Shown: one piece after another, positions 1,810 to 58,168 of the stretch | How the letters are laid out: each line of letters starts with the position of its first letter | Numbering within the stretch: position 1 is the stretch's first letter | Virus record (IMG/VR): IMGVR_UViG_3300000976_000010 | Strand: one strand, 5' to 3' | DNA from: a virus | DNA length: 64,000 bases | The notes under the pieces: generated by a model | What the model was told of the DNA's origin: nothing | Seen by the model: the letters and a program-made list of their open reading frames with translations, nothing else | Database searches by the model: none | Program-made: the position numbers and the translations under genes

Positions 1810-1816
1810 TATGTAC
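1810..1816 (-). promoter_or_regulatory. Candidate phage late promoter (GTACATA)
   Basis: GTACATA 25 nt upstream of ATG 1784. Confidence 0.5.
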
Positions 1817-3595
1817 CTACTCCATCGTTGATGTGTGTACTATTCTTTTATATTCATAGCCAAGCCTTTCTTTAAGTGTTTTTAATCTGTGGAATTGATG
1901 ATTGTACAAATACCCGTGTTTTTTAGTTGTGTAGTCGCTCTCAGCATATTTTCGGTTTGTTTTAGAAGGGGAAGCCCAAAGCTTAGTAGACCAATCATGT
2001 ATAAATACTAATGGTATATCGGAATGTTTTCGTATAATCCTACCAAAGGACTGCATGAATCTTACACTTTCCTTACACGAAGAGTAGAAGTGCATTCTAT
2101 GGAGTTTTTTAATAGACACACCAACTGACATCAATTGATAATTGGATACTAATATAACACCCTCTCCGTTCTCTAATCTATTCATTATTATTGGTCTATC
2201 TTCTGCTTTTACGCCCCCATGGAAGATTATTACCTCTCTACCAATACCTTTCAATTCTTCTTCTAATTTATATAAGTCTTTGAGATTGTCCACAAAAACG
2301 AGTTGGTTTTCTTTTGGGGGGTGCGATTGTATGTTTTGCAGTATTGTGTTTTTATAAGCTTCTGAAACAGACCAATACATTTTACTGAAATTATAAGCAA
2401 GCGATTCATTATACTTTACGATTTTATAATCGGTCTTTTTACTTATGCTATCATCTTTGCGATTGGCTACGGATTTCAGTATTTTTTTATCTCCCAATGC
2501 CCAATATTTATCCTTGTATATTCTCTTAACTATTATATTTTTTGGTAGTGTTTCTATAAAATTATTATGGTTGAAAAAGGTAGCCACATTACCATTTAAT
2601 ACCTTTGATTTATACTGTTCCATTTTCGATTCAAACTTCTTGGTGTCTATTTCTCCTATTTCTATAACATGAGCTTCGTATATATGTTTTGCGGATTGTC
2701 CTGCATCCTCAAGCTCGCGCGCACTAGCCCTATACATAATAGTACCCAAATGATTATCCATGAGAAGTGATTTAGCCCCTTTTATATGTGGGCTTCCCGT
2801 GTATCCGAATTTGGACTTTATATTAGCGCAAGAATTTAGTATTTTTAAATAATCACTGTCTTTTTTATAATGTCCGTCTCCAATCATAGTATGACATTCA
2901 TCAAAAATAATATAGTCGATTTCATCAAAAAAAGTCTTGCAATTCTCGTAATCGGGGTGACTCTTATTCTTGGATTTAATTGCCATGTTGCGAAGTGAAG
3001 CAGCATTACCTATTATAATATTACTTTTATTTCGCTCGGATTTATTATATATAGTGTCCACCTTAAATTCACCGCCTAGCATATCTAAAACGTGCGCTTT
3101 TAAGAATTGAGAATTCTCATAAAAGTTACTTCTCATCTGTGTAGCTAACGTGACTTTTGGGACAACAATCAAAGTCTTATAGCCCTTAATAGCCCTCATA
3201 AGGCAAAATAAATAAGAAATGAATGATTTGCCTGCATTCATACTTAGATCAAACCTGCCGAATTTCAACTCAAGCATTAAATGCAAGGTTTCGGCTTGCC
3301 AATACAATAATGAATATTGAAGACCAAAAGATTCTAGAGCCTTAAGCATTTTTTCTTTATCGACCCGCCTCCTAAGTACGCCTGAATTTTTAATTTGAAG
3401 ATTATTAATTCCGCTTAACCGCTTTAATAAAGTACATGGGATGTACTTCCCATTCATGCAATTGGTGGTTACATAATACCCTTCTCCACTAGGAATGTAG
3501 GTGTTTTCGGTTAACAATTTAAGGGTATTGGAATATTCGTCCTTATTTGCCTTAATTATTTTTGCTCGATCTTTATCAATCACTTTTAGTATCAT
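1817..3595 (-). CDS. uvsW: SF2 DNA helicase, UvsW-like
   Basis: Walker A SMNAGKS, Walker B IIFDECH, motif III GYTGSP, motif VI QSFGRIIR. Confidence 0.85.
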   Translation of the reverse strand: MILKVIDKDRAKIIKANKDEYSNTLKLLTENTYIPSGEGYYVTTNCMNGKYIPCTLLKRLSGINNLQIKNSGVLRRRVDKEKMLKALESFGLQYSLLYWQAETLHLMLELKFGRFDLSMNAGKSFISYLFCLMRAIKGYKTLIVVPKVTLATQMRSNFYENSQFLKAHVLDMLGGEFKVDTIYNKSERNKSNIIIGNAASLRNMAIKSKNKSHPDYENCKTFFDEIDYIIFDECHTMIGDGHYKKDSDYLKILNSCANIKSKFGYTGSPHIKGAKSLLMDNHLGTIMYRASARELEDAGQSAKHIYEAHVIEIGEIDTKKFESKMEQYKSKVLNGNVATFFNHNNFIETLPKNIIVKRIYKDKYWALGDKKILKSVANRKDDSISKKTDYKIVKYNESLAYNFSKMYWSVSEAYKNTILQNIQSHPPKENQLVFVDNLKDLYKLEEELKGIGREVIIFHGGVKAEDRPIIMNRLENGEGVILVSNYQLMSVGVSIKKLHRMHFYSSCKESVRFMQSFGRIIRKHSDIPLVFIHDWSTKLWASPSKTNRKYAESDYTTKKHGYLYNHQFHRLKTLKERLGYEYKRIVHTSTME

Positions 3596-3904
3596 TAAAT
3601 GATAACGCTAAAGTTGATGTTTTGTTTAATTGAATAGTATTATTTTTTTTTGTTTATATAGTAAACACACTCTATTCACACTAAAATTTACTGCATATAG
3701 TGTTGATTTTAAAGGAGAAATCAATAGAACGCTATAATTATTTTTCTATGAAAAATGTATAATTCATCAATACTTTAATAACAAGTGGTTGGGATAAGAC
3801 TCATTTTAATGAAAGAGGTTTAAATGCCCATTAATGAGCACTATATTTATTCTTTTTTTTAAATAAAAAACCTCTATAATTTAAATGATAATCAACCAAT
3901 TGTA

Positions 3905-3956
3905 ACACTTTGCTGTAATAGAGAATTTGGCTAAAAATCCTATTACAGCAAAGTGT
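3905..3956. repeat. Perfect 17-bp inverted repeat in a 495-bp divergent intergenic region
   Basis: ACACTTTGCTGTAATAG-N18-CTATTACAGCAAAGTGT. Confidence 0.85.
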
Positions 3957-4069
3957 CTACTTTGAGCGTTGTTTAGCTCAATAATCAACATAAATTCATT
4001 ATTCACGCTTTTGTTAAAAAAAATGTACATACACACTTTGAAATTATTTATTCAATGTGGTCATAATAG

Positions 4070-4076
4070 GTACATA
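4070..4076 (+). promoter_or_regulatory. Candidate phage late promoter (GTACATA) for the operon leading to the endolysin
   Basis: GTACATA 14 nt upstream of ATG 4091; a second copy at 4025-4031. Confidence 0.5.
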
Positions 4077-4090
4077 TTAAAAACTATATA

Positions 4091-4294
4091 ATGAAAAGTA
4101 ATAATAAGTTTTCGCACCTACAGAAAAACAAAGCATCAAGAGAGATTGCTTGGACGGATAATATATTAACATCAAAATTACCTAAAAGAGCATTCACTAA
4201 CCCAACCACCTCTATGTTTATTCTCCACATAGAAAACTTTATAAAGCCGATTTATCAAAATGTTGACCTGATTAAAAATTGGTGGAAAGTGTAA
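4091..4294 (+). CDS. Hypothetical protein
   Basis: 67-aa ORF with an A-rich leader. Confidence 0.5.
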   Translation: MKSNNKFSHLQKNKASREIAWTDNILTSKLPKRAFTNPTTSMFILHIENFIKPIYQNVDLIKNWWKV

Positions 4295-4337
4295 AAATGC
4301 GTTATATGTTTATTAATTTAACAAAAAAATATATTTT

Positions 4338-4670
4338 ATGCCTATAGTAAGATATGAACACAGAATAAACAACACTGTATTAACACCTGATTCTCCTGTA
4401 ACCGAGCAGCATATCAATAGCCTAGTTGCAAATGAAATGGGGCGACACTTAATGGATAATGGGTTTATTAAAATGGAGATACTTCCAAAATATGATACTT
4501 CGAGCGATTATGAAACTAAACTTTATCAACTGCGTATATTAAGCGATGAAGTTTACTATAAAACACTAAGGGGGCTATTGGATTTAAGAGACGAATTGAA
4601 TTTAAGACATTTAGATAAATCTATTCTAGACCAAGTTAAAGACTTGATTGAATTGTTAAGAAATTGTTAA
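4338..4670 (+). CDS. Hypothetical protein
   Basis: 110-aa ORF tightly packed with its neighbours. Confidence 0.65.
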   Translation: MPIVRYEHRINNTVLTPDSPVTEQHINSLVANEMGRHLMDNGFIKMEILPKYDTSSDYETKLYQLRILSDEVYYKTLRGLLDLRDELNLRHLDKSILDQVKDLIELLRNC

Positions 4671-4671
4671 T

Positions 4672-5004
4672 ATGAAAATTAGTAGAAAGGGCGTTGACTT
4701 AGAAAGGTTAGTCGATTTAAACGACTTTGAAGAACTTATCATTACATGTAGAAGAGTGTGTAACACCCAAAAGCACGTAGATAAAGTAATAGAGCTTTTA
4801 TTTGATGGTCATATTGTGTTAGTGGAAAGTAGTCCGCAAGTTTCAAAAAGCTACAAGCAATCTAGTAGAATTCTAATGCGTAGAATTATAAGAAGGTTGG
4901 CCGAGGAATACAACATTCTATCTACAGGCAATAGGGATGCTGTTAAGTATTTGTTGAGCAATAACAAATCATGTATTGAATTGGTTAATTGGATTAATTA
5001 TTAA
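4672..5004 (+). CDS. Hypothetical protein
   Basis: 110-aa ORF starting 1 nt after the previous stop. Confidence 0.65.
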   Translation: MKISRKGVDLERLVDLNDFEELIITCRRVCNTQKHVDKVIELLFDGHIVLVESSPQVSKSYKQSSRILMRRIIRRLAEEYNILSTGNRDAVKYLLSNNKSCIELVNWINY

Positions 5005-5062
5005 TAAAAAATATCACCTCGTTGAACCCAACGGGTTGATATTTTTTAGCAAAAATAGAAAC

Positions 5063-5974
5063 ATGGAAAAAAGTACAGTAAAGGACATACAGAAAAAGTT
5101 GAATTCTGTATTAGGCATTAATTTGATTGTAGACGGGGGCTATGGACGAAAAAGCAAAAACGCGGTTAGAAAATTTCAGAGAAAATACGACTTACATGTA
5201 GATGGTGTGGTGGGTGTCAAAACACTGAATAAGCTAAACTTTTTATATGAAAGGGGGTATAGTAAAGACTCGGAACTATTGAATTTTAACAAGAGTAGAT
5301 TTGTTGTTTTTGTTGATGCAGGACATGGTGGAATAGACGATAATGGAAAATACACCACATCGGGTAAACGTGCATACCACAAAAATTCAAATTTACATGA
5401 TGGCGGCAATTATTATGAAGGACATGAAAATAGGATTGTCGCGGAAAGTTTTATAGAAGAATGTTCTAAATTGGGCATAATGTGCATAAGAACATACCAC
5501 CCCTATAAAGACACTTCGTTAAAAGAGCGCGTAGAATTGATTAGGGGCTATCTAAATAGAGGGTATTATGGATACCTACACTCATTTCATACTAATGCTA
5601 TTTCTTCTAAAAATAGTCCTTCAACGTTGGAAAATACGGTCGGTTTTTGTGTATACACAACTCTAGGAAACACATTATCTGATAAAATATCGCAAACGCA
5701 TTTCAATAATGTTACAAACATTGTTGGAAAGGGTAATTGGAAATTTAGGACACAGTCAGTTGATGGGGATTCTGATTATGAGGCCGATTTTTATATACTC
5801 AGAAAAACTGATAACGCACACTCCCCCAATTTTGGTGCAATATTAGATGAATGGGGCTTTCATACCTCAAAAAAAGATTGCGAATTTATTGTTGACCAAA
5901 AAAACAGAGATAAGCATGTCTCGGCTTCGATAAAAACAGCAATTTGGACAAAAAATTTGATGGAAAACTTGTGA
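5063..5974 (+). CDS. Endolysin: peptidoglycan-binding domain + N-acetylmuramoyl-L-alanine amidase (Amidase_3)
   Basis: N-terminal VDGGYGRKSKNAVRKFQRKYDLHVDGVVG (PG_binding_1); Zn-amidase motifs DAGHGG, YYEGHEN, SFHTNA, LDEWGF; start moved to ATG 5063. Confidence 0.9.
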   Translation: MEKSTVKDIQKKLNSVLGINLIVDGGYGRKSKNAVRKFQRKYDLHVDGVVGVKTLNKLNFLYERGYSKDSELLNFNKSRFVVFVDAGHGGIDDNGKYTTSGKRAYHKNSNLHDGGNYYEGHENRIVAESFIEECSKLGIMCIRTYHPYKDTSLKERVELIRGYLNRGYYGYLHSFHTNAISSKNSPSTLENTVGFCVYTTLGNTLSDKISQTHFNNVTNIVGKGNWKFRTQSVDGDSDYEADFYILRKTDNAHSPNFGAILDEWGFHTSKKDCEFIVDQKNRDKHVSASIKTAIWTKNLMENL

Positions 5975-5999
5975 TTGCGGATAAATTTTATTATATTTA
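5968..5999 (+). promoter_or_regulatory. Bacteroidota sigma-type (host RNAP) promoter
   Basis: CTTG-N20-TATATTTA, close to the TTTG-N19-21-TAnnTTTG consensus, upstream of 6027. Confidence 0.5.
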
Positions 6000-6026
6000 C
6001 ATAAACTAAAACTTAATTGGATAATT

Positions 6027-6254
6027 ATGGAAGATAAAGTTTATGCGTTTCAATATAATCCCTGTATATATGAAAGTGGTTATTGTACCATAAGCTTGCA
6101 TAAGACATGTAAAGGTGCTTATCAAGCAATGAGAACTTTTATTTTAAGAGAATATAACATTTGGCGTGAAAACGGGATTAGACGAGGCAAGCAACCGTTT
6201 AAGCATGGTGCTTTTGAAGATTGGCGTATGATCGTACTCCCTATTTATGAATAA
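6027..6254 (+). CDS. Hypothetical protein
   Basis: 75-aa ORF after a host-type promoter. Confidence 0.6.
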   Translation: MEDKVYAFQYNPCIYESGYCTISLHKTCKGAYQAMRTFILREYNIWRENGIRRGKQPFKHGAFEDWRMIVLPIYE

Positions 6255-6291
6255 ATAATAAAACTTAAATTTTTTAAATAAGATAGAAAAA

Positions 6292-7081
6292 ATGACACTA
6301 AGAGACTTGATTTTAAGATATGGCATTGAAAAGATTAATACACTTACCAAATATCCATCAATACTAACCCTACACAAATTGGGAAAATAGGGGGTTATTG
6401 AGTGATAATTTGAATTACGATATTAATTTGGATGATTCATGGTTTATAACAGAAAGATTGATGGGGCGAATGCAAGAATTATACTTTTAGGTGATGAGCA
6501 TTTAATTGGATCAAGAAAAGAGATTCTAACACACTCTGATGACTTAATATATAACTCAGCTTTGGGGATCGTGGACGGTTTACAAAAAATGATTAATATA
6601 CCCAAATCATTTGACAAACTTACTATTGTTTACGGTGAGTTTTATGGCGGTAAAGTATCAAAGGCTTCTAAGCAGTATGGAAATTCGGAAGATTTGGGAT
6701 TTCGCGTCTTTGACGTTTCTGTTATAGATGATTTTTCAATTTTAGAAAGTGATATTAAGTCTATTTCCAATCACAGAAAACACAAATTTGGTAATGGACT
6801 AGTTTATGGGAATCCGTTTTTATCACCCGTTGATTTGACCAATTTCTGCCAAAACACACAAACTTGATAGGGTTTCTGATGTAAACCTAGACTTAAAAGA
6901 TTTCGACCATGATAGCATTTTAAAAAGTCTAGAAATTGCGCTCCCACAAACATTAGTCGCCTTATCTGATAGCGCAAAAATGAAATCAGAGGGGTGTATT
7001 TTAAGAAATGGAGATAGGACTATTATTGCTAAATTGAGATTCGAGGATTACCAAAGAACATTGAAAAGAAATGGAAGATGA
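6292..7081 (+). pseudogene. RNA ligase (Rnl2-like nucleotidyltransferase) gene broken by three frameshifts
   Basis: Fragments in different frames join to KINTLTKYPSILTLHKLG / RGLLSD..WFITE / KIDGANARII..GEFYG..FRVFDV / ..KSEGCILRNGDRTIIAKLRFEDYQRTLK; breaks near 6385 (A run), 6455 (A run) and 6855 (CA run). Confidence 0.75.
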
Positions 7082-7498
7082 AGATAATTCATTAAGAGAA
7101 AAAATTGCTAGATAGTTTTTAAGGAGTGGTGATAAAATACTAGGAATTAAACAGGATAGAGTACAAAAAATGTTAATGGGTATATAAATTTACCACTTAA
7201 AATCCCCCATTAATCGCTCCTTTGTTGAATTATCATCACCTAGCCAAAATTTTAGATATAAGCTGCCTATAGAGGAGAAGTATCATTAACTCTCAGAATT
7301 CCGTTTAACGAAGAATCCAACGCGGTATGTATTTTCATTCTATCGTATCAGAATGAATGTATAAGATATGGGATAACACATTTAGAATCACTAATTAAAG
7401 CCACATTGGGATTTATTGAAGCGTTTTAAAGTGAATAGATACAAAACATCAGGCATTTTCATGCAAGTTTTACATAAAATTAAATAAAATATTTAATC

Positions 7499-8206
7499 AT
7501 GAAATACTTAGGTAGTAAGAATAAATTAGCAAAACACATCCTTCCTATAATATTAAAAAATAGAAAGAAGGGTCAATATTATGTAGAACCCTTTGTTGGA
7601 GGTGCTAATTTAATTGATAAGGTTAGTGGGAATAGAATGGGCAATGATAGTAATGAATATATCATTGCACTATTAAAAGCATTGCAAAACGGGTGGTCTC
7701 CTCCTAAATATATCACAAAAGAAGAATACAATAGAGTTAAAAACAATAGAGCGAAATACCCAAAAGAACATGTTGGATATTTCGCCACGCAATTGGTATT
7801 TGGTGGTATTTGGTTTGGTTCATTCAGAAGAGATAATACAGGTAAAAGAATGTATGATATAGAAGCTTATAATAATGTAATGAAACAAGTGCCGAACCTC
7901 AAGGGTATAGATTTTTATTGTGGAGATTACAAAGATTTTTATATCCCTAATAATAGCATTATTTACTGTGACCCACCATACAAGGGTGCAAGACCTTATA
8001 TAGGTGGTAATAAAATACAACACTCAGAGTTTTGGGAATGGTGTAGAAATCTAGCCAAATGCGGTCATACTGTTTATGTATCAGAATATAATGCTCCGAT
8101 AGACTTCACTTGTGTATGGGAAAAGATTGTCAAAGTTAGTGGTAATAATATTACCGCTAAAAAGCCCCAAGACTCAATAGAAAAATTATTTACATACAAC
8201 ATATAA
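7499..8206 (+). CDS. DNA adenine methyltransferase (D12/Dam-like)
   Basis: MKYLGSKNKL, YVEPFVGG (SAM binding), YCDPPY (catalytic). Confidence 0.9.
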   Translation: MKYLGSKNKLAKHILPIILKNRKKGQYYVEPFVGGANLIDKVSGNRMGNDSNEYIIALLKALQNGWSPPKYITKEEYNRVKNNRAKYPKEHVGYFATQLVFGGIWFGSFRRDNTGKRMYDIEAYNNVMKQVPNLKGIDFYCGDYKDFYIPNNSIIYCDPPYKGARPYIGGNKIQHSEFWEWCRNLAKCGHTVYVSEYNAPIDFTCVWEKIVKVSGNNITAKKPQDSIEKLFTYNI

Positions 8207-8244
8207 GATGTTATTTTAAATTCGTATACAATCACTTTTAATTT

Positions 8245-8490
8245 ATGAAATGGACTGAAAATAACCCACCAATCGAAGGTATAAGTTTTTACAACCACAC
8301 TATAAGCGAAACACCAATCGGAAAAATTATAATAGAATGGAAAGCTTGGAAGGACAACATTAGCTATGACGTAATGATAGACGGTGAATGGATTGGTGTT
8401 GAATATGATTTGACAAAAGCTAAAGATATTGCACTATTATATATAAAGGAAAAGTCAGAAAATCTATTATCTTTTTTAAATTCGGACTAG
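8245..8490 (+). CDS. Hypothetical protein
   Basis: 81-aa ORF. Confidence 0.65.
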   Translation: MKWTENNPPIEGISFYNHTISETPIGKIIIEWKAWKDNISYDVMIDGEWIGVEYDLTKAKDIALLYIKEKSENLLSFLNSD

Positions 8491-8715
8491 TTTATCAACT
8501 TTAAGTGTGTTTTTTTTGGTGTCTTAATGGTTACTACAATAAGACACCCTCTCCTTTTATGTCGAATTCGAGGTGTATAAAAGGACTATATTGCTATTTA
8601 TGCGCTAAATCAAAAAAGTGGGATATGTTTAGCTAATAATTGTATCCAAAAATGAGATGGATGATAGCCAATATTGATACTAAAAGAAGTTCTCTTATGG
8701 GTTCAAAACTAAATC

Positions 8716-9444
8716 ATGAAAGTAAGTATAGAAGACCTTAACAACCTAGTAAGTACAGGGACAGCCGAAAATATTGAGTTGGCCTATATGCTCTGTGAGA
8801 GTCAGAGAATAGATTTTGATAGTCTTGAGAGTGTACAGAAATATGTTCCTATTATTAATTGGTTAAATAATTATCATCATGGTTATCAGGATATAAAAAT
8901 GGGATTAATTAAATGCCTTGGTTTAGAAGTGCTAGATTTAGAGTTCCGTATAACAGAAAAATTGCCTCACTCTTTAGGATTATTGAATACACTAAATGCT
9001 CTTTTTTTAGATGACAATTTTTTAACAAACTTGCCCGATTCATTGGGAGAACTGTTACTTTTAGAAATCCTTAGTCTAAGCGGTAACAAATTACTAAAGC
9101 TGCCCGAATCAATTGGAAACTTAACGAGCTTGGAGTCTCTTATATTGTACAATAACAGATTGATTGAGATCCCCGATTCAGTATGCAATCTATTAGAATT
9201 GGAAAATTTAAACTTAGGTAAAAATAGCTTGACGTTTTTGCCCAAATCCATAGGGAATTTAACCAATTTGAAAAGGTTAAGTCTATACAATAACAAATTA
9301 ATAAAACTGCCCGAATCACTTGGAAATTTAAAAAATATAACACGGTTAGACCTGCGCCAAAACCCTCTAGAATTAGGCGAATCTATGACTGCAAAGGTGA
9401 TAAGTAAACTAAAGTTGAGGGGTGTCAACATTGAATTAGATTAA
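8716..9444 (+). CDS. Leucine-rich repeat protein (LRR copy 1, intact)
   Basis: Repeated 23-aa units LxxLxLxxNxLxxLPESIGNL after a helical N-terminal domain; C-cap NPLEL. Confidence 0.95.
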   Translation: MKVSIEDLNNLVSTGTAENIELAYMLCESQRIDFDSLESVQKYVPIINWLNNYHHGYQDIKMGLIKCLGLEVLDLEFRITEKLPHSLGLLNTLNALFLDDNFLTNLPDSLGELLLLEILSLSGNKLLKLPESIGNLTSLESLILYNNRLIEIPDSVCNLLELENLNLGKNSLTFLPKSIGNLTNLKRLSLYNNKLIKLPESLGNLKNITRLDLRQNPLELGESMTAKVISKLKLRGVNIELD

Positions 9445-10106
9445 ACTTCAAAACGCACGAAGAATTGAACTATTTGGTAAAAAAGATTTATCCGAAACAA
9501 TGAGGTGGCATACATTCTTTGTGAGACTCAGGCTATAGATTTCCTTGAGGCATTAGAGTGTGTATAAGTATGTTCCTATTATTAATTAGTTGAGCAATTA
9601 CTCTGAAGGCCGTGGCGAGATTAAACTTCAATACCAAAGGCTATCAGACTTAAGAGCCTCGACTTAAGCAACAAAAAATAAAAGGCTTCCTGAATCAATT
9701 GGCACACTAACCAATCTTTTTTGGCTTGATTTAAGTGAAAATTATTTGGAGACCATCCCCGATCCATTCGCAAATTTGATAAATACGAAAGCACAATACT
9801 TAGAAAATAATGACACACAGCATTTTCATGAGGCAATTTTAAGCATAAACACATTAGAACTTTTAGTTCTGTCTAATAATATTATAACAACACTTCTATC
9901 TTCAATTGGTAATTTAAGCTGTATTAAAATATTAACTTAGGGAAAAATAAAATTGTAAATTTGTCCTTATCTATAATTAATTAAAAGGGTTAGAAGTTCT
10001 TTCATTGCACAATAGCCCATTAGACTTAACAGAACCGACGATACCGCGTGTGATAGATGAATTAGGGAATAAAAGGAAAGGGGGTGTTAATGTAACATTG
10101 TATTAG
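9445..10106 (+). pseudogene. Decayed tandem paralogue of LRR copy 1 (copy 2)
   Basis: Fragments EVAYILCETQAIDF, KYVPIIN*LSNY, LPESIGTLTNLFWLDLSENYLETIPD, PLDLTEPT..VI, GGVNVTLY*; multiple stops and frameshifts; tatgttcctattattaat identical to copy 1. Confidence 0.8.
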
Positions 10107-10145
10107 AGACATCGCTAAATTTATTTTTAACTTTTTTTTCAATAG

Positions 10146-10177
10146 CTTGGTCGATTCACTTTTTAGCCTTATATTGT
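10146..10177 (+). promoter_or_regulatory. Bacteroidota sigma-type promoter
   Basis: CTTG-N20-TATATTGT upstream of ATG 10205. Confidence 0.45.
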
Positions 10178-10204
10178 GGTATTAATAAACACAACAACAA
10201 AATA

Positions 10205-10660
10205 ATGAAAACATTAGAAGACTTGAACGCGCTTGTTGATATAGGCAAAAAGGACAATATTGAGTTAGTCATTCAATTCTGTGAAGAACAGGACTTGTTA
10301 TTTGAAGAAATTGATACTGTGAAGGAGCATGTTCCTATTATTAAGTGACTGTCCCAATTAATTGATGTTCAAGTTTATGTTAGAGATAAGACTCCCGAAC
10401 CACAACTTTTACAAACTCATGCCCCTATGAAATCGAATGCAGTTTTCTTTTTTCAATTCAACATAAAAAACTACAGAAATAATTAAGCTCAATTTATCAG
10501 GATTATATGGTCAATATAATGGAACGTATGACACTTATTTTTAGCGAAAAAAAATTCAAAAACGCCCTGAGTCGCTATTAAAATAATAATATTTGGATGA
10601 CATATACTTAGAATACCACATCCATTAGAATTAACAGAACCAATTAAAAGTGCGTGTTAA
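10205..10660 (+). pseudogene. Truncated LRR-family paralogue (copy 3); the 47-aa N-terminal domain is still an intact ORF (10205-10348)
   Basis: MKTLEDLNALVDIGKKDNIELVIQFCEEQDLLFEEIDTVKEHVPIIK* aligns with the N-terminus of copy 1; remnant HPLELTEP C-cap near 10620. Confidence 0.75.
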
Positions 10661-10712
10661 GATCAGGCCAAAGTATTAATTTTATCTTATTTAATCAGTA
10701 ACAATATACAAA

Positions 10713-10964
10713 ATGCTCAAAAATAAATATATCTATTGCTCTGATTGTGATTCAGACTTAGATGGACGGAATCATATACGAAGTTCAGAAAATAAAATTG
10801 GTTGGCCTATTGACTTTTACAAATGCCATGTTTGCGGAACCACAACCACAGATATTACATTCCCCAAAGATGCTAAACTTGTCAAAATTGAGGAGATTAG
10901 GTGCAATCCCGATAAGTATTTATTAAAAGAAGGTGAATACTTAAGCTTGGAATGTCTTAAATAG
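10713..10964 (+). CDS. Small zinc-finger-like protein
   Basis: CSDC...CHVC pairs in 83 aa. Confidence 0.6.
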   Translation: MLKNKYIYCSDCDSDLDGRNHIRSSENKIGWPIDFYKCHVCGTTTTDITFPKDAKLVKIEEIRCNPDKYLLKEGEYLSLECLK

Positions 10965-10986
10965 TCTTAAACACAACACAAAAAAA

Positions 10987-11649: not shown

Positions 11650-11659
11650 AAATGATAGT

Positions 11660-12387
11660 ATGAAAGTTTTGATAGCATGTGAAGAGAGCCAACAGATATG
11701 CAAAGCCTTTCGAGAATTGGGGCTTGAAGCTTATAGTTGCGATATACAAAATTGTAGTGGCGGAAAACCTGAATGGCATATAAAGGCGGATGCGCTAATA
11801 GAAGCATACAGTGAAAAATATGATTTAATGATTGCACATCCACCATGTACATACATGAGTAACGCAGGGGCGCGTTGGATGTATCCAAGTGCAGGTAATG
11901 TTGATGCACAGAGATATGAAAAATCCATAATAGCTAAAGATTTTTTTTGAAACTTATGAACGCACCAATTAAACACATTTGTATAGAGAATCCCATCCCA
12001 CTTAAAATCGTGGGTCTTCCTAAATACAGCCAAGTAGTTCAGCCATACGAATATGGACATCCCTTTAGTAAAAATATACAAGACCTAAATGAATTGGAAG
12101 TTCGTTTTGCCAAAAAGAAAATGCGAGGATTATACTTTTTAAATCCTAGGCTCAATGATATTATTCCTGTAATTGATAGCACTACAAGACATTTCGGTCG
12201 AGAGGAATCCATTTTGCTTATATTAGATTTATTTGAATTGGCATACTACAGAGGTGAAGTTTTGGATGTTGAGCTTGAATTTTTTTTTGAAAAATATTTC
12301 TCTGATAGTGTTCTAAGAACTTTAAGTTGTGGTAAAAAAATATTAAAACATGCACAAGACATGTTAACTGAATTAAACTTTAAATAG
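11660..12387 (+). pseudogene. Phage-type C5 cytosine methyltransferase, frameshifted at a T8 tract and fused to an unrelated helical domain
   Basis: MKVLIACEESQ, AHPPCTY, then a frame change at T8 (11941-11948) to IENPIP..QPYEYGHPFSK, then a switch near 12070 to sequence similar to ORF 13234-13632. Confidence 0.75.
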
Positions 12388-12388
12388 A

Positions 12389-13213: not shown

Positions 13214-13233
13214 TCCAACCCCAAATAGAACAG

Positions 13234-14835: not shown

Positions 14836-14859
14836 ATAATTTATTACCATTGTAATAAT

Positions 14860-18713: not shown

Positions 18714-18747
18714 TATGTACATAATTGTTGATATACCAATGTACATA
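18714..18747. promoter_or_regulatory. Divergent late-promoter region: palindromic TATGTACATA plus a second GTACATA
   Basis: TATGTACATA at 18714-18723 and GTACATA at 18741-18747, between divergent ATGs 18697 (-) and 18772 (+). Confidence 0.55.
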
Positions 18748-20678: not shown

Positions 20679-20685
20679 GTACATA
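20679..20685 (+). promoter_or_regulatory. Candidate late promoter (GTACATA)
   Basis: 36 nt upstream of the sheath ATG. Confidence 0.5.
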
Positions 20686-23675: not shown

Positions 23676-23718
23676 GTACATATATAACAACGTCAGGAAT
23701 TGTAATTACCTGACGTTG
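23676..23718 (+). promoter_or_regulatory. GTACATA motif followed by a 10-bp hairpin upstream of the tube gene
   Basis: GTACATA at 23676-23682; caacgtcagg-N11-cctgacgttg at 23688-23718. Confidence 0.45.
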
Positions 23719-28379: not shown

Positions 28380-28386
28380 GTACATA
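28380..28386 (+). promoter_or_regulatory. Candidate late promoter (GTACATA)
   Basis: Immediately after the terminator, 20 nt upstream of ATG 28407. Confidence 0.55.
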
Positions 28387-35599: not shown

Positions 35600-35606
35600 G
35601 TACATA
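35600..35606 (+). promoter_or_regulatory. Candidate late promoter (GTACATA)
   Basis: 60 nt upstream of ATG 35667. Confidence 0.45.
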
Positions 35607-39688: not shown

Positions 39689-39689
39689 C

Positions 39690-42066: not shown

Positions 42067-42076
42067 TATGTACATA
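42067..42076 (-). promoter_or_regulatory. Candidate late promoter of the capsid gene (palindromic TATGTACATA)
   Basis: 34 nt upstream of the capsid ATG, just downstream of a terminator. Confidence 0.55.
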
Positions 42077-44173: not shown

Positions 44174-44180
44174 TATGTAC
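44174..44180 (-). promoter_or_regulatory. Candidate late promoter (GTACATA)
   Basis: 38 nt upstream of the protease ATG. Confidence 0.5.
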
Positions 44181-46048: not shown

Positions 46049-46708
46049 TTAGCGTTTTTTATTTTTCATAAAGGCTTTGTATTCCTTTTCTAATTTAACC
46101 AAATTGGTCTTTCTGTAACGCCTACTTGGTATATGTACCGCTTTTACCCAATCCGCTGTGTCAAATTCAATTGCTTTATCAATTCTAGAAGGGGCATACA
46201 TGCGAATGCCAAAATCACCCCCATATTTACCTATTTTATTTTCCAAAGCCTTTATCGAAAATTGGAATGTCGGCTGCTTTTCTTTTTCATTAAGACCCCT
46301 CTTAAATGTACTTTTATGCGAGTCCCATATATCCGCAAAAAGTCTAACTCTAACTAAGGGTGGTAAAAGGTGGAAGTTTATACCTAGAACACGCCTCTCT
46401 CCTTTAATAGTAACAAATGAAGAAGACATTAACACTAGTGGTTCAGCATCCCACCAAGGAAGCGTTTTTTCGTGCAGTGGCTTCTCGTATTTAAACCAAT
46501 ACAAACGCCCTCCCTTTGGCTCTTTTTTTCCGTATATATATTTTTTATTCTTCTTTATTTCTCTAAACCAACGCAATGCTTCTGTTGCCTTGTTTGGTGC
46601 TGAGTCAAATGCCTTTTCAGCCTCTTCTAAGAAGTCGTATTTGTTCTGCTGTTTTAAATTGCTAAAGAAACCCTTTAATTTAGCAATTGAGTTGTCTATG
46701 AGTCCCAT
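46049..46708 (-). CDS. DNA end protector protein (T4 gp2-like)
   Basis: GRLYWFKY..LHEKTLPWWDAEPLV..GINFHLLPP..R. Confidence 0.85.
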   Translation of the reverse strand: MGLIDNSIAKLKGFFSNLKQQNKYDFLEEAEKAFDSAPNKATEALRWFREIKKNKKYIYGKKEPKGGRLYWFKYEKPLHEKTLPWWDAEPLVLMSSSFVTIKGERRVLGINFHLLPPLVRVRLFADIWDSHKSTFKRGLNEKEKQPTFQFSIKALENKIGKYGGDFGIRMYAPSRIDKAIEFDTADWVKAVHIPSRRYRKTNLVKLEKEYKAFMKNKKR

Positions 46709-51062: not shown

Positions 51063-51069
51063 TATGTAC
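51063..51069 (-). promoter_or_regulatory. GTACATA motif upstream of nrdA
   Basis: 24 nt upstream of ATG 51038. Confidence 0.45.
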
Positions 51070-51109: not shown

Positions 51110-51141
51110 TTTGGTTTTTTAATTTATTATCTGTACTTTTG
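51110..51141 (+). promoter_or_regulatory. Consensus Bacteroidota sigma promoter driving clamp-polymerase
   Basis: TTTG-N20-TACTTTTG, an exact match to TTTG-N19-21-TAnnTTTG. Confidence 0.7.
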
Positions 51142-51178: not shown

Positions 51179-51985
51179 ATGAATATAAAAAACTTTCAAG
51201 CCCTTATACAAGGCACAAAAATTAATGGTGTTGATTCTGATACTGTATATTTTGTAACTCCTGAAAAAACTTATGCAACTAACGAAAACCAAGGCGTTAG
51301 TCTAATTCAAACTTATGAAACGTCAGATATTTTTGATAACGTAGAAACGAATTTTACATTTTCCTTTTTCAATATCAAAAAGGTGTTAGATAAAATTAAG
51401 GGTCTTTTATCGGATGATCCTGAAAACATAATAATGGATTTTGAATTTGTAGATAGTAAATACAACGGATTCAAAGAAATTCGGAGAACTTCTATAAAAC
51501 GGAAGAGTCCGAAGTTGCAATTTCATTTACCTCACCCATCCGTTTCTTATACCCTAAAAAGTGCTACAAGGACACCACACTCAAGCAAGTTTAACTTAAA
51601 AGGTGATATTATAGATATTACTGATGGTGCGTTATTTATGGAAAATCTTTCTAGGATTGATTCTGCTGATAAGAGTGGCAAACTTAATCATATTAGCTTT
51701 TCTAACGAAAATGGTTTGGGAACGGTCATTGCGAGATGTGGAGATGATTATTTTGAGTGTGGTTTGTCAGAACTTACCAAACCATTTAAAGTTTATAAAA
51801 GAGATTTGGAATCTTTAAAAGCGAGGCCATTTAGTATAACAGTTGGAGAAGGTGCTATAATAATTGAGCAGGGGACTACAAGATTCCATTTGCCAACATC
51901 TACCATGAATGAAGAGCTTGAGGCTTCACAAATGGCAGCAATAGAAAATCTTTGTGGTTTAACAGATATTGATTATGGATATTAA
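51179..51985 (+). CDS. Putative sliding clamp (gp45-like)
   Basis: 268 aa, two-domain alpha/beta pattern, overlaps the polymerase gene; assignment from size and context. Confidence 0.45.
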   Translation: MNIKNFQALIQGTKINGVDSDTVYFVTPEKTYATNENQGVSLIQTYETSDIFDNVETNFTFSFFNIKKVLDKIKGLLSDDPENIIMDFEFVDSKYNGFKEIRRTSIKRKSPKLQFHLPHPSVSYTLKSATRTPHSSKFNLKGDIIDITDGALFMENLSRIDSADKSGKLNHISFSNENGLGTVIARCGDDYFECGLSELTKPFKVYKRDLESLKARPFSITVGEGAIIIEQGTTRFHLPTSTMNEELEASQMAAIENLCGLTDIDYGY

Positions 51986-53483
51986 TTTCCCCCCTAGAGA
52001 AAGTGTAGGAGAAACTGATTTGATGTATTGGGATTTAGTAGAACCGCTAAATCCCACATACGACAATGTGAAGGAGATTATTAAGCCCTATAACGAAAAA
52101 GGTGAGAAAACAGCAGAATTCTTAGAAGCGGTTAAGGCGGTTAAAAAGTTAGGGCTAGTTGAAGCAAAAGAACTTCTTGTTAAGATGAAAAATGCCAAAG
52201 CTTTTTATTCCGAATTGGAGCAAAATAAAAAATTGGATTCAAATGGATTGTATGGGTATGTTGGGGCTTCCTTTGCTGAATACACATCTATGAGAGTCGC
52301 GGGAGATATTACAGCAGAGGGGCGTAATATTTTTAAAATAATGGATACTGAAACTACAAAATTGTTAGACAATGTTTTAGTTAATTACAAGGGGGGCAAA
52401 AAAGGGTTATTGGACATATTCGTTGATTTTAAGGAAGCCAAAGAGAGGTTTGGAGATATTATCAGAGTTAATGAAAATCCTAAAAAAATACCACACCTAG
52501 TAGAATCAACACAAGTATGTGAATATAAATCACGTGGTAGTAGAGGTAATCCACATGTTGAATATGTAGGTAAAACCACAAGACACACGGTACTTTACGG
52601 AGACACGGATTCTGTTTGTATAGGATTTGAGAATATATGTCGCTCTTATGGCATTATTCCTGAATCCGATGATCCAAAGCGTGTGTCTAGGTTTGTTGAA
52701 TGGTTTTGTTTGAAAGTATTAATACCTTTTTATCATAAAATTATACAAAACTTGTGTGATAAGAGAAATGTTACCAATACTTATATACTAGAATGTGAGC
52801 AGATTTTAGAAAAAATGCACTTATATGCAAAGAAGTGTTATTGCAGCTCTCTCGCTATATTGGATGGGAAGAGTGTTTATGAAAAGGGCGATGTTAAAGC
52901 AGGGGGGATTGTTATTAAAAAGACATCCTATCCGAAAATAATAAGAAAAAAGCTCAAGGATTTGGAAAATATTATGCTACGAAGCGTGAATAAAGACAAG
53001 AATAATTTGGATTATATCACCAAATTGATGAGCAAACATATTGATATTTTTTCAAATAGACCTGTTGAAGAACTCTGTAATACACAAACAGTAAGAAAGT
53101 TTAGCGAAAAAACAGAATTGGTTAATGGTTACTATAAAACCATAAAGGGAGCAGGCGTTAATGAAAAGGGGATGGTCATGTACAACAATCATGTGATAGC
53201 TAACAATCTTAATATACCACTTTTAGGAAATGGTTCTAAGGTTAAGACATATCCGCTACTTTCAGATGGTGGAGAAGAAGAGTATTTTTCTTGGGATATT
53301 GATAGTAGTGAAAGTCCACCATCTTGGTCTCCAAAGCCAAACTTTGAAACTTTGATATACAAGAAGTACACAAAGAATGCTATACTTTACGTTACCACGG
53401 AATATCCACATTTGATAGGTAGAGAGGATTATCTTAGAGACCCAAAAACATTTCCAAAATTATTTATGAAAGTTCCCGATTAA
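51975..53483 (+). CDS. Family B DNA polymerase, C-terminal subunit of a split enzyme
   Basis: Motif B KLDSNGLYG, motif C YGDTDS, KKCY; lacks the exonuclease domain and motif A (DxxSLYPS). Confidence 0.88.
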   Translation: MDINFPPRESVGETDLMYWDLVEPLNPTYDNVKEIIKPYNEKGEKTAEFLEAVKAVKKLGLVEAKELLVKMKNAKAFYSELEQNKKLDSNGLYGYVGASFAEYTSMRVAGDITAEGRNIFKIMDTETTKLLDNVLVNYKGGKKGLLDIFVDFKEAKERFGDIIRVNENPKKIPHLVESTQVCEYKSRGSRGNPHVEYVGKTTRHTVLYGDTDSVCIGFENICRSYGIIPESDDPKRVSRFVEWFCLKVLIPFYHKIIQNLCDKRNVTNTYILECEQILEKMHLYAKKCYCSSLAILDGKSVYEKGDVKAGGIVIKKTSYPKIIRKKLKDLENIMLRSVNKDKNNLDYITKLMSKHIDIFSNRPVEELCNTQTVRKFSEKTELVNGYYKTIKGAGVNEKGMVMYNNHVIANNLNIPLLGNGSKVKTYPLLSDGGEEEYFSWDIDSSESPPSWSPKPNFETLIYKKYTKNAILYVTTEYPHLIGREDYLRDPKTFPKLFMKVPD

Positions 53484-56042: not shown

Positions 56043-56213
56043 TTATCTAACATCTCCAATAGAACAATCTATTTCATTTTTAATACCTTCTAAGGAATCT
56101 GAGACCAAGCCAAAGCCGTTGGTGTGATAATCGGTGTAGTATCCTGTATTAAAACTGCCTACTCTTTTAATGAGAATATCATAGCCCCTGTATTCTTCTT
56201 CTTCAAATTCCAA
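56043..56213 (-). CDS. Small hypothetical protein, TTG start (not in ORF track)
   Basis: MEFEEEEYRGYDILIKRVGSFNTGYY...DVR, 56 aa, fills the gap between 56228 and 55960. Confidence 0.45.
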   Translation of the reverse strand: MEFEEEEYRGYDILIKRVGSFNTGYYTDYHTNGFGLVSDSLEGIKNEIDCSIGDVR

Positions 56214-56227
56214 TTTGTTATAAACCC

Positions 56228-58072
56228 CTATCTTCCACCAAAGGCATCCTTTGCGCTACCAAAACCAACGGATTGTCTAGTCTTTAACTTACTCTCAAGA
56301 AGATTCTGTAGTTTATGCTTTCCAACCCTTCCGCTCCCCTCATAAAAACGGTTTCTAGTTTCGGGATCAAGATTTTCAATAATGTTTTCATGCAAGCTTT
56401 TCTTACCACCCTTAGTGTGATACTGCTCCATAAACACCCTAACTCGCTCTTTTCGATTAGACTCCATGACTTCTTCTTTATTCTTGGCTGTGTCTTCTTT
56501 TTCGGACTTGCCTTTCGGTTTAGACTTGACTTTCGGTTTAGACTTCCCCTTCTCTTTAGATTCTTCGTCATCGTCGTCTTCGTCTTCATCTTCGTCATCT
56601 TCGTCATCGTCATCTTTTTCAGACTCCTTATCGACATAAACCTCTTTCTTAGGCACTTCTTTCTCATCGTCATCACCCTCTCCCCCTTTCGTGTCATCGG
56701 GTGTTTTCTTATCCTTTGTATCCTTAACTTCCTTATCCGTCTCGCTATCGGTTTCTTTTTCATATAAAGAAACCTTTCGCTCATGCAATGGCACAAAACT
56801 TCCATCATCAACCTTACCATCCATTATATCCTGAACCTTAGCGATTAAAGTGTCTGTTTTTGATAAAACGGATTCCAAAACTTTATATGCTTTTGAACCC
56901 TCAACTAAAACATTCATCCTATCAATAACATCTCGCTTTCGTTCTAGAAGGCTGCTCATTTTTTTCTCTTGAAGCTTGATGAATGCCTGTTGCTCACTTT
57001 TGGTTCGCTTTTCATTGTCGATAACTTCGACCATGGCCTCATGCAAATTAATACCAACAATTTTACTAGCCATTTCTGTAGCAGCTTCCACAGTTTCTAC
57101 GAATTTACAAGATGGTTGGTATCTACCCTCCATTACAATAACAAGGGGCTGATTCTCAATTTTACCTGATACGACTTTATCCCCATATTCATTGGTAGAT
57201 AGAACGCACTCATGGAATTCATAAATTTGGTCAAAATTCTCAGCCAAATAAAGAACAACATTTGCTGCATCGTGGCAAGAGTTGTCCATAAGTCTAGCCT
57301 TTTCTGCAAATTTGTCAACATCATACTTCAATCTGCCTTCAAAAATGCCCTTCTCATTAACAGAATATTTAGTGTCACCAACAACAACACAATATCGTTT
57401 CTCGTCCTTCTTCCATTCACAGCACAATTCCATTGAATTGCTTAGTTTAATGAATTCAATAGGGGCTTTTGCAACCTCAACAACATCTTTATTTTCTGTA
57501 ATAGCTAAAATAGTAGAACCAAATCTAACAAAAGACTTCCCATCTTTTTCCATGACCAATCCCATTGGAACGGAAACATCATAAAGGCTTTCCTTGTTAT
57601 GGTTTAATGTTATTTCTCTGCACTCCTTAACCAAATCATTTAATTCTTGATCTTGTTCCCTATAGGTGGAAACTCCATCCGAAACTACATGGGTTAGCCT
57701 TGAGTCTTCGTTAATTAATATATTGTCGATGTCATTGACAATAGTTTCTGCCACCACATTATCCTGTGTCGATAATCTTTCTGCAATGGATAATAGTCGA
57801 GTGCGAGTCATGTTTGTTTCAAAACCCTCTTTTATAACATCCATCACATGACCAAATTTTTTATCGGTTGGGTTTTTGTTGATGTATGCCTCCAAGCACA
57901 TGTATACATGGTTGGCCTCGTTAACTGTATTAACACCATTAGCGTACTCTTTTAATAGGTCTTGACGCAGACTCACGCCCTCTAGCGACACAGCCTTTGT
58001 TTCGGAGAGCAATTGTTTAATGTTCATTGCTTCTACCAATTTCTTGGCCTGTGAATTGAAATTCCTTTTCAT
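56228..58072 (-). CDS. Probable head/core protein with coiled coil and acidic/basic low-complexity tail
   Basis: 614 aa; DDDDEDDEDEDEDDDDEE then KSKPKVKSKPKGK; GTACATA upstream. Confidence 0.55.
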   Translation of the reverse strand: MKRNFNSQAKKLVEAMNIKQLLSETKAVSLEGVSLRQDLLKEYANGVNTVNEANHVYMCLEAYINKNPTDKKFGHVMDVIKEGFETNMTRTRLLSIAERLSTQDNVVAETIVNDIDNILINEDSRLTHVVSDGVSTYREQDQELNDLVKECREITLNHNKESLYDVSVPMGLVMEKDGKSFVRFGSTILAITENKDVVEVAKAPIEFIKLSNSMELCCEWKKDEKRYCVVVGDTKYSVNEKGIFEGRLKYDVDKFAEKARLMDNSCHDAANVVLYLAENFDQIYEFHECVLSTNEYGDKVVSGKIENQPLVIVMEGRYQPSCKFVETVEAATEMASKIVGINLHEAMVEVIDNEKRTKSEQQAFIKLQEKKMSSLLERKRDVIDRMNVLVEGSKAYKVLESVLSKTDTLIAKVQDIMDGKVDDGSFVPLHERKVSLYEKETDSETDKEVKDTKDKKTPDDTKGGEGDDDEKEVPKKEVYVDKESEKDDDDEDDEDEDEDDDDEESKEKGKSKPKVKSKPKGKSEKEDTAKNKEEVMESNRKERVRVFMEQYHTKGGKKSLHENIIENLDPETRNRFYEGSGRVGKHKLQNLLESKLKTRQSVGFGSAKDAFGGR

Positions 58073-58114
58073 AATGAGGTTATGTAAATTAAATTTTAAA
58101 AATGTATTTGGATT

Positions 58115-58168
58115 TATGTACCAATTCCCTTTTTAAACGTTTTTATTTGTATTAATTAATGGTACATA
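58115..58168. promoter_or_regulatory. Back-to-back GTACATA motifs for divergent operons
   Basis: Minus-strand copy at 58115-58121 (42 nt from ATG 58072); plus-strand copy at 58162-58168 (13 nt from ATG 58182). Confidence 0.55.

Follow-up and report, generated by a model that had tools for sequence, protein, structure and literature searches.

The DNA analysed here, referred to as the window, is a 64,000-nt stretch of the 137-kb record IMGVR_UViG_3300000976_000010, which is estimated to be 37% complete and comes from an uncultured giant T4-like phage whose host is probably a member of the Bacteroidota. Genes were called with a simple longest-ORF caller and two starts were corrected by hand. 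A first-pass annotation had proposed, from a scan by eye, that the word GTACATA upstream of mostly virion or late genes is a late promoter replacing that of T4; the scan proved exhaustive and matches our exact search of the window, which gave 20 copies. These are listed below, together with the two genes of the sigma operon. The distance d is the number of bases separating the motif end from the start codon, and the relative is a complete 368-kb phage genome whose capsid protein is 67% identical.

1810..1816, minus strand: box, d 25 to ORF 1383-1784 (133 aa); the relative's ortholog has ATACATA here
4025-4031 and 4070-4076, plus strand: two boxes, d 59 and 14 to ORF 4091-4294; not conserved in the relative
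11847..11853, plus strand: intragenic copy, probably chance
18714-18720, minus strand: box, d 16 to ORF 15461-18697 (1078 aa); one half of the palindrome TATGTACATA
18717-18723, plus strand: box, d 48 to 18772; other half of the palindrome TATGTACATA
18741-18747, plus strand: box, d 24 to the large terminase gene 18772-20670
19120-19126, minus strand: intragenic copy, probably chance
20679..20685, plus strand: box, d 36 to the tail sheath gene 20722-23673; 38 nt in the relative
23676..23682, plus strand: box, d 73 to ORF 23756-24298 (180 aa); 60 nt in the relative
28380..28386, plus strand: box, d 20 to the tail protein gene 28407-30887; 23 nt in the relative
35600..35606, plus strand: box, d 60 to ORF 35667-39518 (1283 aa, phrog_31887); 53 nt in the relative
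42067..42073, minus strand: box, d 34 to the major capsid gene 40131-42032
42070-42076, plus strand: 20th copy of the window, reverse half of the palindrome TATGTACATA, facing the terminator 42084-42131
44174..44180, minus strand: box, d 38 to the prohead protease/scaffold gene 42129-44135; 39 nt in the relative
46132..46138, minus strand: box, 110 nt before the portal gene 44198-46021; 121 nt in the relative
51063..51069, minus strand: box, d 24 to the ribonucleotide reductase (RNR) large-subunit gene 48729-51038
58115..58121, minus strand: box, d 42 to ORF 56228-58072 (614 aa); 46 nt in the relative
58162..58168, plus strand: box, d 13 to 58182, the start of the 55-aa ORF heading the sigma operon; GTACATT at the same place in two relatives
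58182..58349, plus strand: 55-aa ORF, separated by 3 nt from the sigma gene
58353..58715, plus strand: predicted gp55-family late sigma factor, 120 aa, sigma region 2 fold, C-terminal S-I-D-A-I-L
60442-60448, plus strand: intragenic copy, probably chance

All 13 gene starts listed in the first-pass annotation have a sense-strand GTACATA 13-73 nt upstream. The four copies that it placed within coding sequence (11847, 19120, 46132 and 60442) are the only ones fully within ORFs, but the copy at 46132, which sits in the 3′ end of the gp2-like (DNA end protector) ORF 46049-46708, is not a chance coding copy, since it is on the sense strand 110 nt before the portal gene and is conserved in the relative. 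The other three probably are, given that the coding count is at chance expectation, and copy 60442 is absent at the matching place in the 368-kb relative. At the divergent control region 18714..18747 both flanking orthologs keep the box in that genome. The ORF 23756-24298, next after the sheath gene, is probably the tail tube. ORF 4091-4294 is the first of a rightward gene run that contains the endolysin-like gene 4976-5974, and the stretch separating box 23676 from the start at 23756 contains an inverted repeat (AACGTCAGG...CCTGACGTT).

Among genes with a recognisable product (many box-headed genes have no known function), the box precedes those for the terminase, the sheath, the likely tube, a tail protein, the major capsid, the prohead protease, the portal and a baseplate wedge, as well as the endolysin-containing run. 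It is absent before the helicase, the methyltransferases, the RNR small subunit and the DNA polymerase parts. The genes concerned are thus mainly virion and lysis genes as had been proposed, except that the sigma operon and the RNR large-subunit gene are also boxed, the latter with a perfect copy that makes it an exception to the virion-gene rule. The RNR large subunit is not a late gene in T4.

The 20 copies of the window compare with 8.0 +/- 2.6 (largest 15) in 100 dinucleotide-preserving shuffles. The first-pass annotation had suggested an exhaustive count with an intergenic enrichment test, and its outcome is extreme: the 8.9% of the window that is intergenic holds 15 copies where a second-order Markov model predicts 0.89 (P 6e-14), and the coding DNA holds 5 where 7.6 are expected. 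The 137-kb record as a whole has 30 intergenic copies vs 2.5 expected, its coding copies being at chance level, and GTACATA is the top-enriched 7-mer of its sense-upstream DNA (26 of 46 copies, 1.9 expected, P 3e-24). None of the one-mismatch variants is enriched, and all seven positions are invariant. A chance or compositional artefact could be suspected, since the intergenic DNA is rich in A and T and mild enrichment is seen for many A/T-rich words. However, models fitted to the intergenic sequences themselves predict 0.9 copies for the window, which has 15, and the pattern is replicated in a second genome and conserved at orthologous genes. An origin by chance or composition is refuted on these three grounds and has next to no probability.

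The replication comes from the 368-kb relative, where the top word is again GTACATA (42 of 93 copies vs 3.4 expected, P 5e-35) and 42 of the 46 intergenic copies are correctly oriented. In 72 reciprocal-best-hit pairs (median 51% identity), from which the RNR large-subunit gene was left out because it has no pair, the box was present in both phages for 21, in neither for 40 and in one for 11, an agreement with an odds ratio of 28 (P 1e-8). Box-to-start distances in ortholog pairs are often within 0-5 nt of each other, and the intergenic DNA flanking the boxes has diverged. The box of the capsid gene is kept in three phages, among which the stem of the neighbouring terminator shows compensatory changes. 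GTACATA is therefore a real, strictly conserved signal before virion genes. It also precedes genes on contigs whose sigma is 65%, 45% or 37% identical to that of the window, and judging from these sequences its usage is specific to the window's clade, with sigmas at least 37% identical.

In the 137-kb record 29 of the 30 intergenic copies face the adjacent gene start (15 of 16 between tandem genes are sense-oriented), and convergent intergenic gaps hold none. The distance to the start codon ranges from 10 to 73 nt with a median of 28. T4 run through the identical pipeline as a control gave ATAAATA/TATAAAT as top words, 13-73 nt from the start with a median of 25. The proposed absence of a -35 element holds up: the positions -45 to -1 upstream of GTACATA show neither such an element nor any other conserved block. 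The remark that the word often sits right after a terminator is overstated, because in the window only boxes 28380 and 42067 directly follow a terminator-like hairpin. The latter lies 20 nt past the bidirectional terminator 42084-42131, and directly 5′ of the former is a G+C-rich hairpin plus a T-run.

The gene-sense orientation and the position 10-73 nt before start codons would also fit an element of the RNA leader, such as a ribonuclease processing site or the site of a translational regulator, in transcripts starting further upstream. We consider this very unlikely. Fourteen copies belong to control regions between divergent genes, some of these regions being only about 110 nt long, with opposite copies back-to-back or overlapping, and such tight regions with opposed copies leave neither room nor signal for upstream promoters. 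Furthermore, some copies stand just past terminators, the promoter-like upstream block that such transcripts would call for is absent, and the spacing distribution is the same as that of T4 late promoters.

The base preceding the G of GTACATA is never C and is frequently T, giving the palindrome TGTACA, and full TATGTACATA palindromes occur at two sites (the 18714 and 42067 regions). A short conserved word within control regions, with such symmetry, could be the operator of a phage DNA-binding activator or repressor acting beside host sigma-A promoters. Yet the Bacteroidota sigma-A promoter type, with TAnnTTTG at -7 and an upstream TTG at -33, is absent from GTACATA sites and no other conserved element accompanies the word; ten boxes are so close to the start codon (10-16 nt) that a separate downstream promoter would not fit; and the strict strand orientation would be unusual for operators. 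An operator role is accordingly highly improbable.

Enrichment, orientation, strictness, conservation, the virion and lysis gene class and the presence of a gp55-family sigma gene all support the late-promoter interpretation. T4 late promoters carry TATAAATA at -13 to -6, which gp55 recognises together with gp33 and the gp45 sliding clamp (PMC7892883; PDB 7D7C/7D7D). As in T4, a strict -10-like word of 7-8 bp stands with no -35 element and near-identical spacing before virion genes, and both phages encode a gp55-family sigma. The T4 word itself is not used, and TATAAATA is not enriched upstream in the record (4 of 33 copies sense-upstream). Aligned to it from -13 to -6, nGTACATA matches at 5 of 8 positions, and the specific differences at -12 (A to G) and -9 (A to C) fall on two of the three bases (A-12, A-9 and A-8) that T4 gp55 flips into protein pockets (PMC7892883). 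The sequence evidence indicates that GTACATA is most likely the counterpart of the T4 late promoter in this lineage, recognised by the phage's own miniature gp55-type sigma.

The protein encoded at 58353-58715 was indeed found to belong to the gp55 family. Its family profile matches T4 gp55 (PDB 7d7c_F) with an E value of 6.7e-13, hhalign gives 97.6% and an E value of 3e-12 over gp55 residues 4-116, and the structure model (pLDDT 87) has the same chain (7D7C chain F) as its best Foldseek match, with a TM score of 0.74. The model consists of four helices and a short C-terminal helix and ends at residue 120. The window sigma thus has 120 aa against 185 in T4 and lacks the helix-loop-helix module that follows about residue 117 of gp55, a module that T4 gp55 requires for full activity (PMC7892883); members of its family mostly have 110-140 aa. 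When used as a tblastn query it retrieved homologues from phages of Tenacibaculum and Chryseobacterium as well as cyanophage 'sigma factor for late transcription' genes. The window phage also differs from T4 in a conserved 55-aa ORF before the sigma gene, in the 368-kb genome of its relative and in a host that is probably a member of the Bacteroidota. The pair of 55-aa ORF and sigma gene is conserved in three relatives, and the ORF has no Pfam or PHROG match.

After gp55, the next-best fold matches of the window sigma were to region 2 of ECF sigmas (E. coli sigmaE; PDB 4LUP, 2MAP, 5OR5). The likeness lies in single sigma-2 domains that would read a short non-template-strand word via base flipping. 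ECF sigmas additionally require region 4 and a -35 element, whereas neither a region 4 (searched in the 137-kb record) nor a -35 element was found in the window phage.

Less improbable than the leader and operator readings is a real phage promoter read by something other than the 58353 protein, either a further phage factor whose gene lies in the two thirds of the genome not sequenced or host polymerase modified in some other way. Such a promoter could serve middle as well as late genes. The sigma operon is itself headed by GTACATA, and its control region of 110 nt shows no host-type promoter, which poses a chicken-and-egg problem; the RNR large-subunit gene is boxed too, and only an estimated 37% of the genome is in the record. 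Against such a reader, there is a single gp55-family gene in the complete 368-kb relative, as in the 137-kb record, and no sigma region 4 match in the latter. A strict word at -10 alone, spaced as in T4, is also the hallmark of gp55-type recognition, and a gp55-family sigma is likewise encoded by a 38.9-kb phage that is unrelated and has three boxes with the GTACATA core. On balance, we regard another reader as unlikely, and GTACATA is probably the core, -10-like element of a late promoter used by the host core RNA polymerase together with the 58353-58715 sigma.

We infer that transcription from the box is late, depends on this sigma, begins at the site proposed below and may be activated by a sliding clamp. 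The host RNA polymerase core would carry the 120-aa sigma, and the holoenzyme would need no -35 element to bind and melt the DNA at the 7-bp word. Transcripts of T4-type late promoters begin about 6-7 nt past the word, late in infection and in dependence on the phage sigma. In the window phage the first base of the mRNA would lie a few nucleotides 3′ of GTACATA, where an A-rich stretch is found at 4-7 nt, and the genes so expressed would be those for head, tail, packaging and lysis. In regards to the clamp, the gp45-type models gave no match (PF09116 and phrog_223 in both genomes, PF02916 in the relative) and neither did the bacterial beta-clamp model, but a diverged clamp may have been missed, since the relative has a gp44-like clamp-loader match (E 2e-22). 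The S-I-D-A-I-L end of the sigma (SLEKLF, NIDAIF, SLNQVF and SYDAIF in relatives) bears a mere resemblance to the T4 clamp-binding motif L-D-F-L-Y/L/F.

Other phages with a short late box and a gp55 homologue keep an A/T-only TAAATA-type core, in contrast to the G and C that GTACATA has at two positions. The late promoter consensus of T4-like cyanophages is given as NATATAATA (PMC3184105), and in Tenacibaculum phage pT24 we found TATAAATA ahead of the terminase gene, among others. The GTACATA core does occur in the uncultured 38.9-kb phage mentioned above (IMG/VR UViG 3300010411_000004, 55% G+C), as three GGTTGCGTACATAG boxes on one strand before genes, and the same profile finds its gp55-family sigma (E 1e-8). 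It differs from the window phage in a fixed 6-bp upstream extension, in being small, G+C-rich and unrelated, and in a sigma that keeps His at the position of gp55 H95. The window sigma has Phe there, and an argument from this pocket residue is weak because Phe is the family consensus and His is kept in this other GTACATA-using sigma. A more doubtful, tentative proposal is that the giant Bacteroidota phage clade re-tuned gp55-type recognition at -12 (A to G) and -9 (A to C) by means of a minimal 120-aa sigma without the helix-loop-helix, always paired with the 55-aa partner, and that gp55-like sigmas of unrelated small phages recognise the same core. If so, GTACATA would be a second widespread specificity class of the minimal sigma family, and would offer a natural specificity-swap pair for learning how a lone sigma-2 domain reads DNA.

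Sigma-70 type promoters are no more frequent than in shuffles. A separate host-type promoter class (TTG ... TAnnTTTG, often TATATTTG) stands before clusters of small ORFs, a different set of genes.

We found 20 copies of GTACATA in the window, where shuffled versions gave 8.0 ± 2.6, and each of the 13 gene starts at which the first-pass annotation had seen this candidate late-promoter word does have a sense-oriented copy (hereafter the box) 13-73 nt upstream, with a second copy at three of them. The four copies which that annotation had placed in coding sequence proved to be the only ones inside ORFs; the 20th window copy belongs to a TATGTACATA palindrome, of which it forms the reverse half. 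Using a gene map from a simple longest-ORF caller and expectations from a second-order Markov model of the same DNA class, we counted 15 copies in the intergenic 8.9% of the window where 0.89 were expected (P = 6e-14), which bears out the proposed intergenic enrichment, and 5 in coding DNA, against 7.6 expected. In the whole 137,393-bp IMG/VR virus record (33.8% G+C), of which the window is bases 28257-92256, the figures were 30 against 2.5 (intergenic) and 16 against 17 (coding), and GTACATA is the most enriched 7-mer of all in the sense-upstream intergenic DNA of the record (26 of 46 copies, 1.9 expected, P = 3e-24). The adjacent gene start is faced by 29 of the 30 intergenic copies; in gaps between tandem genes 15 of 16 face a start, the sole exception being the reverse half of the palindrome, and gaps between convergent genes in the record hold none. 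The claim that the word often follows a terminator was overstated, since in three hairpin plus T-run scans of the window only the copies at 28380 and 42067 lay directly after a terminator-like hairpin. A literature search returned no paper tying GTACATA to a phage promoter.

Late transcription in T4 is the textbook case of a promoter pared down to one 8-bp word, with a minimal sigma as its reader, and to our knowledge the natural late-promoter variants described to date all retain an A/T-only core of the TAAATA type. When the identical pipeline was run on the T4 genome, the top words were ATAAATA and TATAAAT (24/65, P = 3e-22), the next one being the early-promoter word GTTTAC, and the box-to-start distances were 13-73 nt with a median of 25. 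The pipeline recovers known late promoters, and GTACATA shares the T4 positional signature; in the record it lies 10-73 nt (median 28) from the start codon, and the called starts are supported by PHROG alignments beginning at residue 1-9 of several downstream proteins. As had been proposed, the T4 late-promoter box TATAAATA would be replaced, that word not being enriched in the record, and no -35 element accompanies the new one, nothing being conserved from -45 to -1 of GTACATA apart from the preceding base, which is never C. An A-rich stretch lies 4-7 nt downstream. None of the 21 single-mismatch variants was significantly enriched, and GTACATA is therefore as strict as the T4 late box. Aligned to TATAAATA, nGTACATA keeps T-11, A-10, A-8, T-7 and A-6, but has G at -12 and C at -9; the T4 late sigma, gp55, flips A-12, A-9 and A-8 of TATAAATA into pockets (PMC7892883). 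The single-step intermediates between the two words are of the GTAAATA and TATACATA types.

The association with mostly virion genes also stood, boxes heading the genes for the large terminase, tail sheath, a tail protein, the major capsid protein, the prohead protease and a baseplate wedge. They further head the ORF after the sheath gene, which is probably the tube gene, a run with an endolysin-like gene among its members, and several large ORFs without assigned function, and the portal gene's box sits inside the gp2-like ORF. Genes without a box include those for a helicase, two methyltransferases, the small subunit of RNR and both parts of the DNA polymerase. Two boxes do not fit the late rule, one before the gene for the RNR large subunit (51063) and one before the operon of the candidate late sigma (58162). 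Just 3' of the box at 23676, the tube-like gene has a 9-bp inverted repeat (AACGTCAGG ... CCTGACGTT, window 23683-23755) in what is presumably its leader. Homology to family-B DNA polymerase is divided over two ORFs, window 51969-53483 and record 98825-100804, separated by about 45 kb; Chryseobacterium phage MA9V-2 likewise carries a pair of polymerase ORFs, which flank a TnpB gene.

The record, 37% complete according to CheckV, encodes portal, prohead protease, major capsid, sheath, terminase and gp2-like proteins that are T4-type but distant, the portal having 29-31% identity to those of Tenacibaculum phages pT24 and PTm1 and Sphingomonas phage PAU, and its DNA was found in metagenomes associated with algae and plants. 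Neither a megablast of 22 kb against GenBank phages nor an IMG/VR single-protein scan using the capsid protein gave a match; relatives were found through protein searches together with an 18-base coding pattern. Among them is a complete genome of 368,109 bp with direct terminal repeats and a capsid protein 67% identical to that of the record (hereafter the relative), which, together with the T4-type proteins, places the window in a jumbo T4-like phage. The provirus label that the record bears in IMG/VR is doubtful, because the gene content matches a lytic T4-like jumbo phage and a relative this close has a 368-kb genome with terminal repeats.

In the relative GTACATA is again the top word, with 42 of 93 copies sense-upstream (3.4 expected, P = 5e-35) and 42 of 46 intergenic copies facing a gene start; the preceding base is C at none of the 42 sites, and A occupies +4 to +6 at 29-32 of them. 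Pairing record and relative by reciprocal best hits gave 72 ortholog pairs (median identity 51%), of which 21 have the box upstream in both phages, 40 in neither and 11 in one only (odds ratio 28, P = 1e-8). The box distances are often equal within 0-5 nt between the phages (e.g. 13/13, 31/32, 36/38, 38/39 and 10/12), and several discordant pairs carry a one-base variant in the same place, which is GTACATT at the sigma operon and, at the others, ATACATA or TTACATA. Leader alignments of the capsid, protease and 1283-aa genes present the box as a conserved island amid diverged DNA. The terminator ahead of the capsid box (42084-42131) is bidirectional, lying between the protease and capsid genes, and its stem is kept by compensatory changes in three phages (GTGCC/GGCAC, GCACC/GGTGC and GTATC/GATAC in the window and the related sequences L006 and L007). 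At the level of sequence, GTACATA is thus a real, conserved and oriented promoter-like signal, with all the properties of a gp55-type late promoter that can be read at that level. The sigma-operon box at 58162-58168 is GTACATA in the window and GTACATT at the same position in the relative and in the related sequence L011, and this may give the sigma gene a promoter that is weaker by design or timed differently.

This phage, which does not use TATAAATA, encodes a gp55 homologue, the 120-aa product of 58353-58715 (the sigma, or mini-gp55), with 98 relatives at E <= 0.001, mostly of 110-140 aa. A profile from 77 sigma relatives matches T4 gp55 (7d7c_F) with E = 6.7e-13, hhalign of the family against gp55 gave 97.6% over gp55 residues 4-116, and Pfam Sigma70_r2 is touched by 46 of the 77. 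In fold, the AlphaFold model (pLDDT 87) is closest to 7d7c_F (TM 0.74) and next closest to ECF sigma-2 domains. Sigma region 4 had no match in the record. T4 gp55 has a helix-loop-helix module, and the sigma ends where that module would start; its tail, S-I-D-A-I-L, has counterparts of the same kind in relatives and is similar to L-D-F-L-Y/L/F, the T4 clamp-binding motif (PMC7892883, supplementary table 2). Directly upstream of the mini-gp55 gene there is always an ORF of 50-55 aa with a conserved H-P-x-H-G-x-G core:

window 58182-58349, first ORF of the sigma operon
L011 382-534, ORF ahead of the mini-gp55 gene in this related sequence
L012 1800-1955, ORF ahead of the mini-gp55 gene in this related sequence
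relative 261163-261321, ORF ahead of the mini-gp55 gene

Neither Pfam nor PHROG gave a match for this ORF, and its product might be a partner of the sigma.

Sequence searches with Pfam gp45 models, phrog_223 or a bacterial beta-clamp model returned no clamp of the type of gp45, the T4 sliding clamp. The relative has a gp44-like clamp loader, and the 233-aa ORF upstream of that clamp-loader-like gene has one homologue only and a poor Atlas model; a clamp-loader match in the window's own record was rejected as a generic AAA+ protein. The undetected clamp and the sigma operon being headed by GTACATA itself are both gaps in the reading of GTACATA as a late promoter served by this sigma, and the alternative, to which we give a small chance, would be a promoter that has another reader or is not exclusively late. 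The sigma is the only gp55-family gene in the record and likewise in the complete relative, and we regard a late promoter read by the 120-aa sigma as the probable function of GTACATA.

On short contigs with sigmas 65%, 45% and 37% identical, GTACATA also stands ahead of genes, in two cases directly after a terminator; on contigs with sigmas 31-34% identical it was not found ahead of genes. In 40-kb pieces of Tenacibaculum phage pT24 and Chryseobacterium phage MA9V-2 the enrichment test gave no single strict word; by eye, TATAAATA-like boxes can be seen in pT24 and GTATAC[AT]TA-like words in MA9V-2. Between 12000 and 30000 of MA9V-2 (L017), GTATACTA, GTATACATA and GTGTACATATA lie ahead of several genes, those of the protease and the gp2-like protein among them, and these words, which are not significant in the 40-kb sample, may be an intermediate late-box variant with the same C. 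A search of IMG/VR for GGTTGCGTACATAG found one complete 38.9-kb phage of 55% G+C with three copies, which are its only GTACATA copies and lie all on one strand ahead of genes. It encodes a gp55-family sigma matched by the same profile (E = 1e-8), and the GTACATA core is therefore not limited to one clade.

The gp55 residues N13 and H95 of the -9 pocket correspond to K15 and F84 in the sigma; L54, F86, Y97 and T99 are unchanged, and K49 is a conservative replacement of R57. These differences are only suggestive as an explanation of GTACATA specificity, and we claim no recognition code, because Phe at the H95 position is the consensus of the sigma family, K15 is lost in the 37%-identical sigma, and the sigma of the 38.9-kb GTACATA phage retains His. 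GTACATA is a well-supported candidate variant with G and C at two positions that gp55 flips, and, with its presumed cognate sigma in hand, the code by which sigma-2-only factors recognize DNA can be approached by direct experiment. For a large uncultured group of marine and algae-associated jumbo phages, in which most proteins are without known function, the word also gives a practical rule for annotating late genes.

A second promoter class consists of TTG and, 17-21 nt on, TAnnTTTG (often TATATTTG), and was found ahead of clusters of small ORFs and of ORF 51179:

window 51111-51141, TTG/TAnnTTTG promoter ahead of ORF 51179
record, beyond the window, TTG/TAnnTTTG promoters upstream of the ORFs ending at 16003, 95386, 97970, 110990, 131275, 134495 and 135983

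We take this to be the -33/-7 pattern of Bacteroidota sigma-A, and as such it is a clue to the host phylum and to the early genes; the boxes and these promoters together point to a putative Bacteroidota host. A scan for E. coli-type (sigma-70) promoters stayed at shuffle level in all three 20-kb blocks. Other than A/T runs, the next upstream-enriched word of the relative is AACGTTA/ACGTTAA (21 of 63 copies), and to the right of the window a block of about 40 nt with AACGTTAAAAT recurs before two neighbouring genes (record upstream regions 106814 and 107259); these could be another regulatory site.
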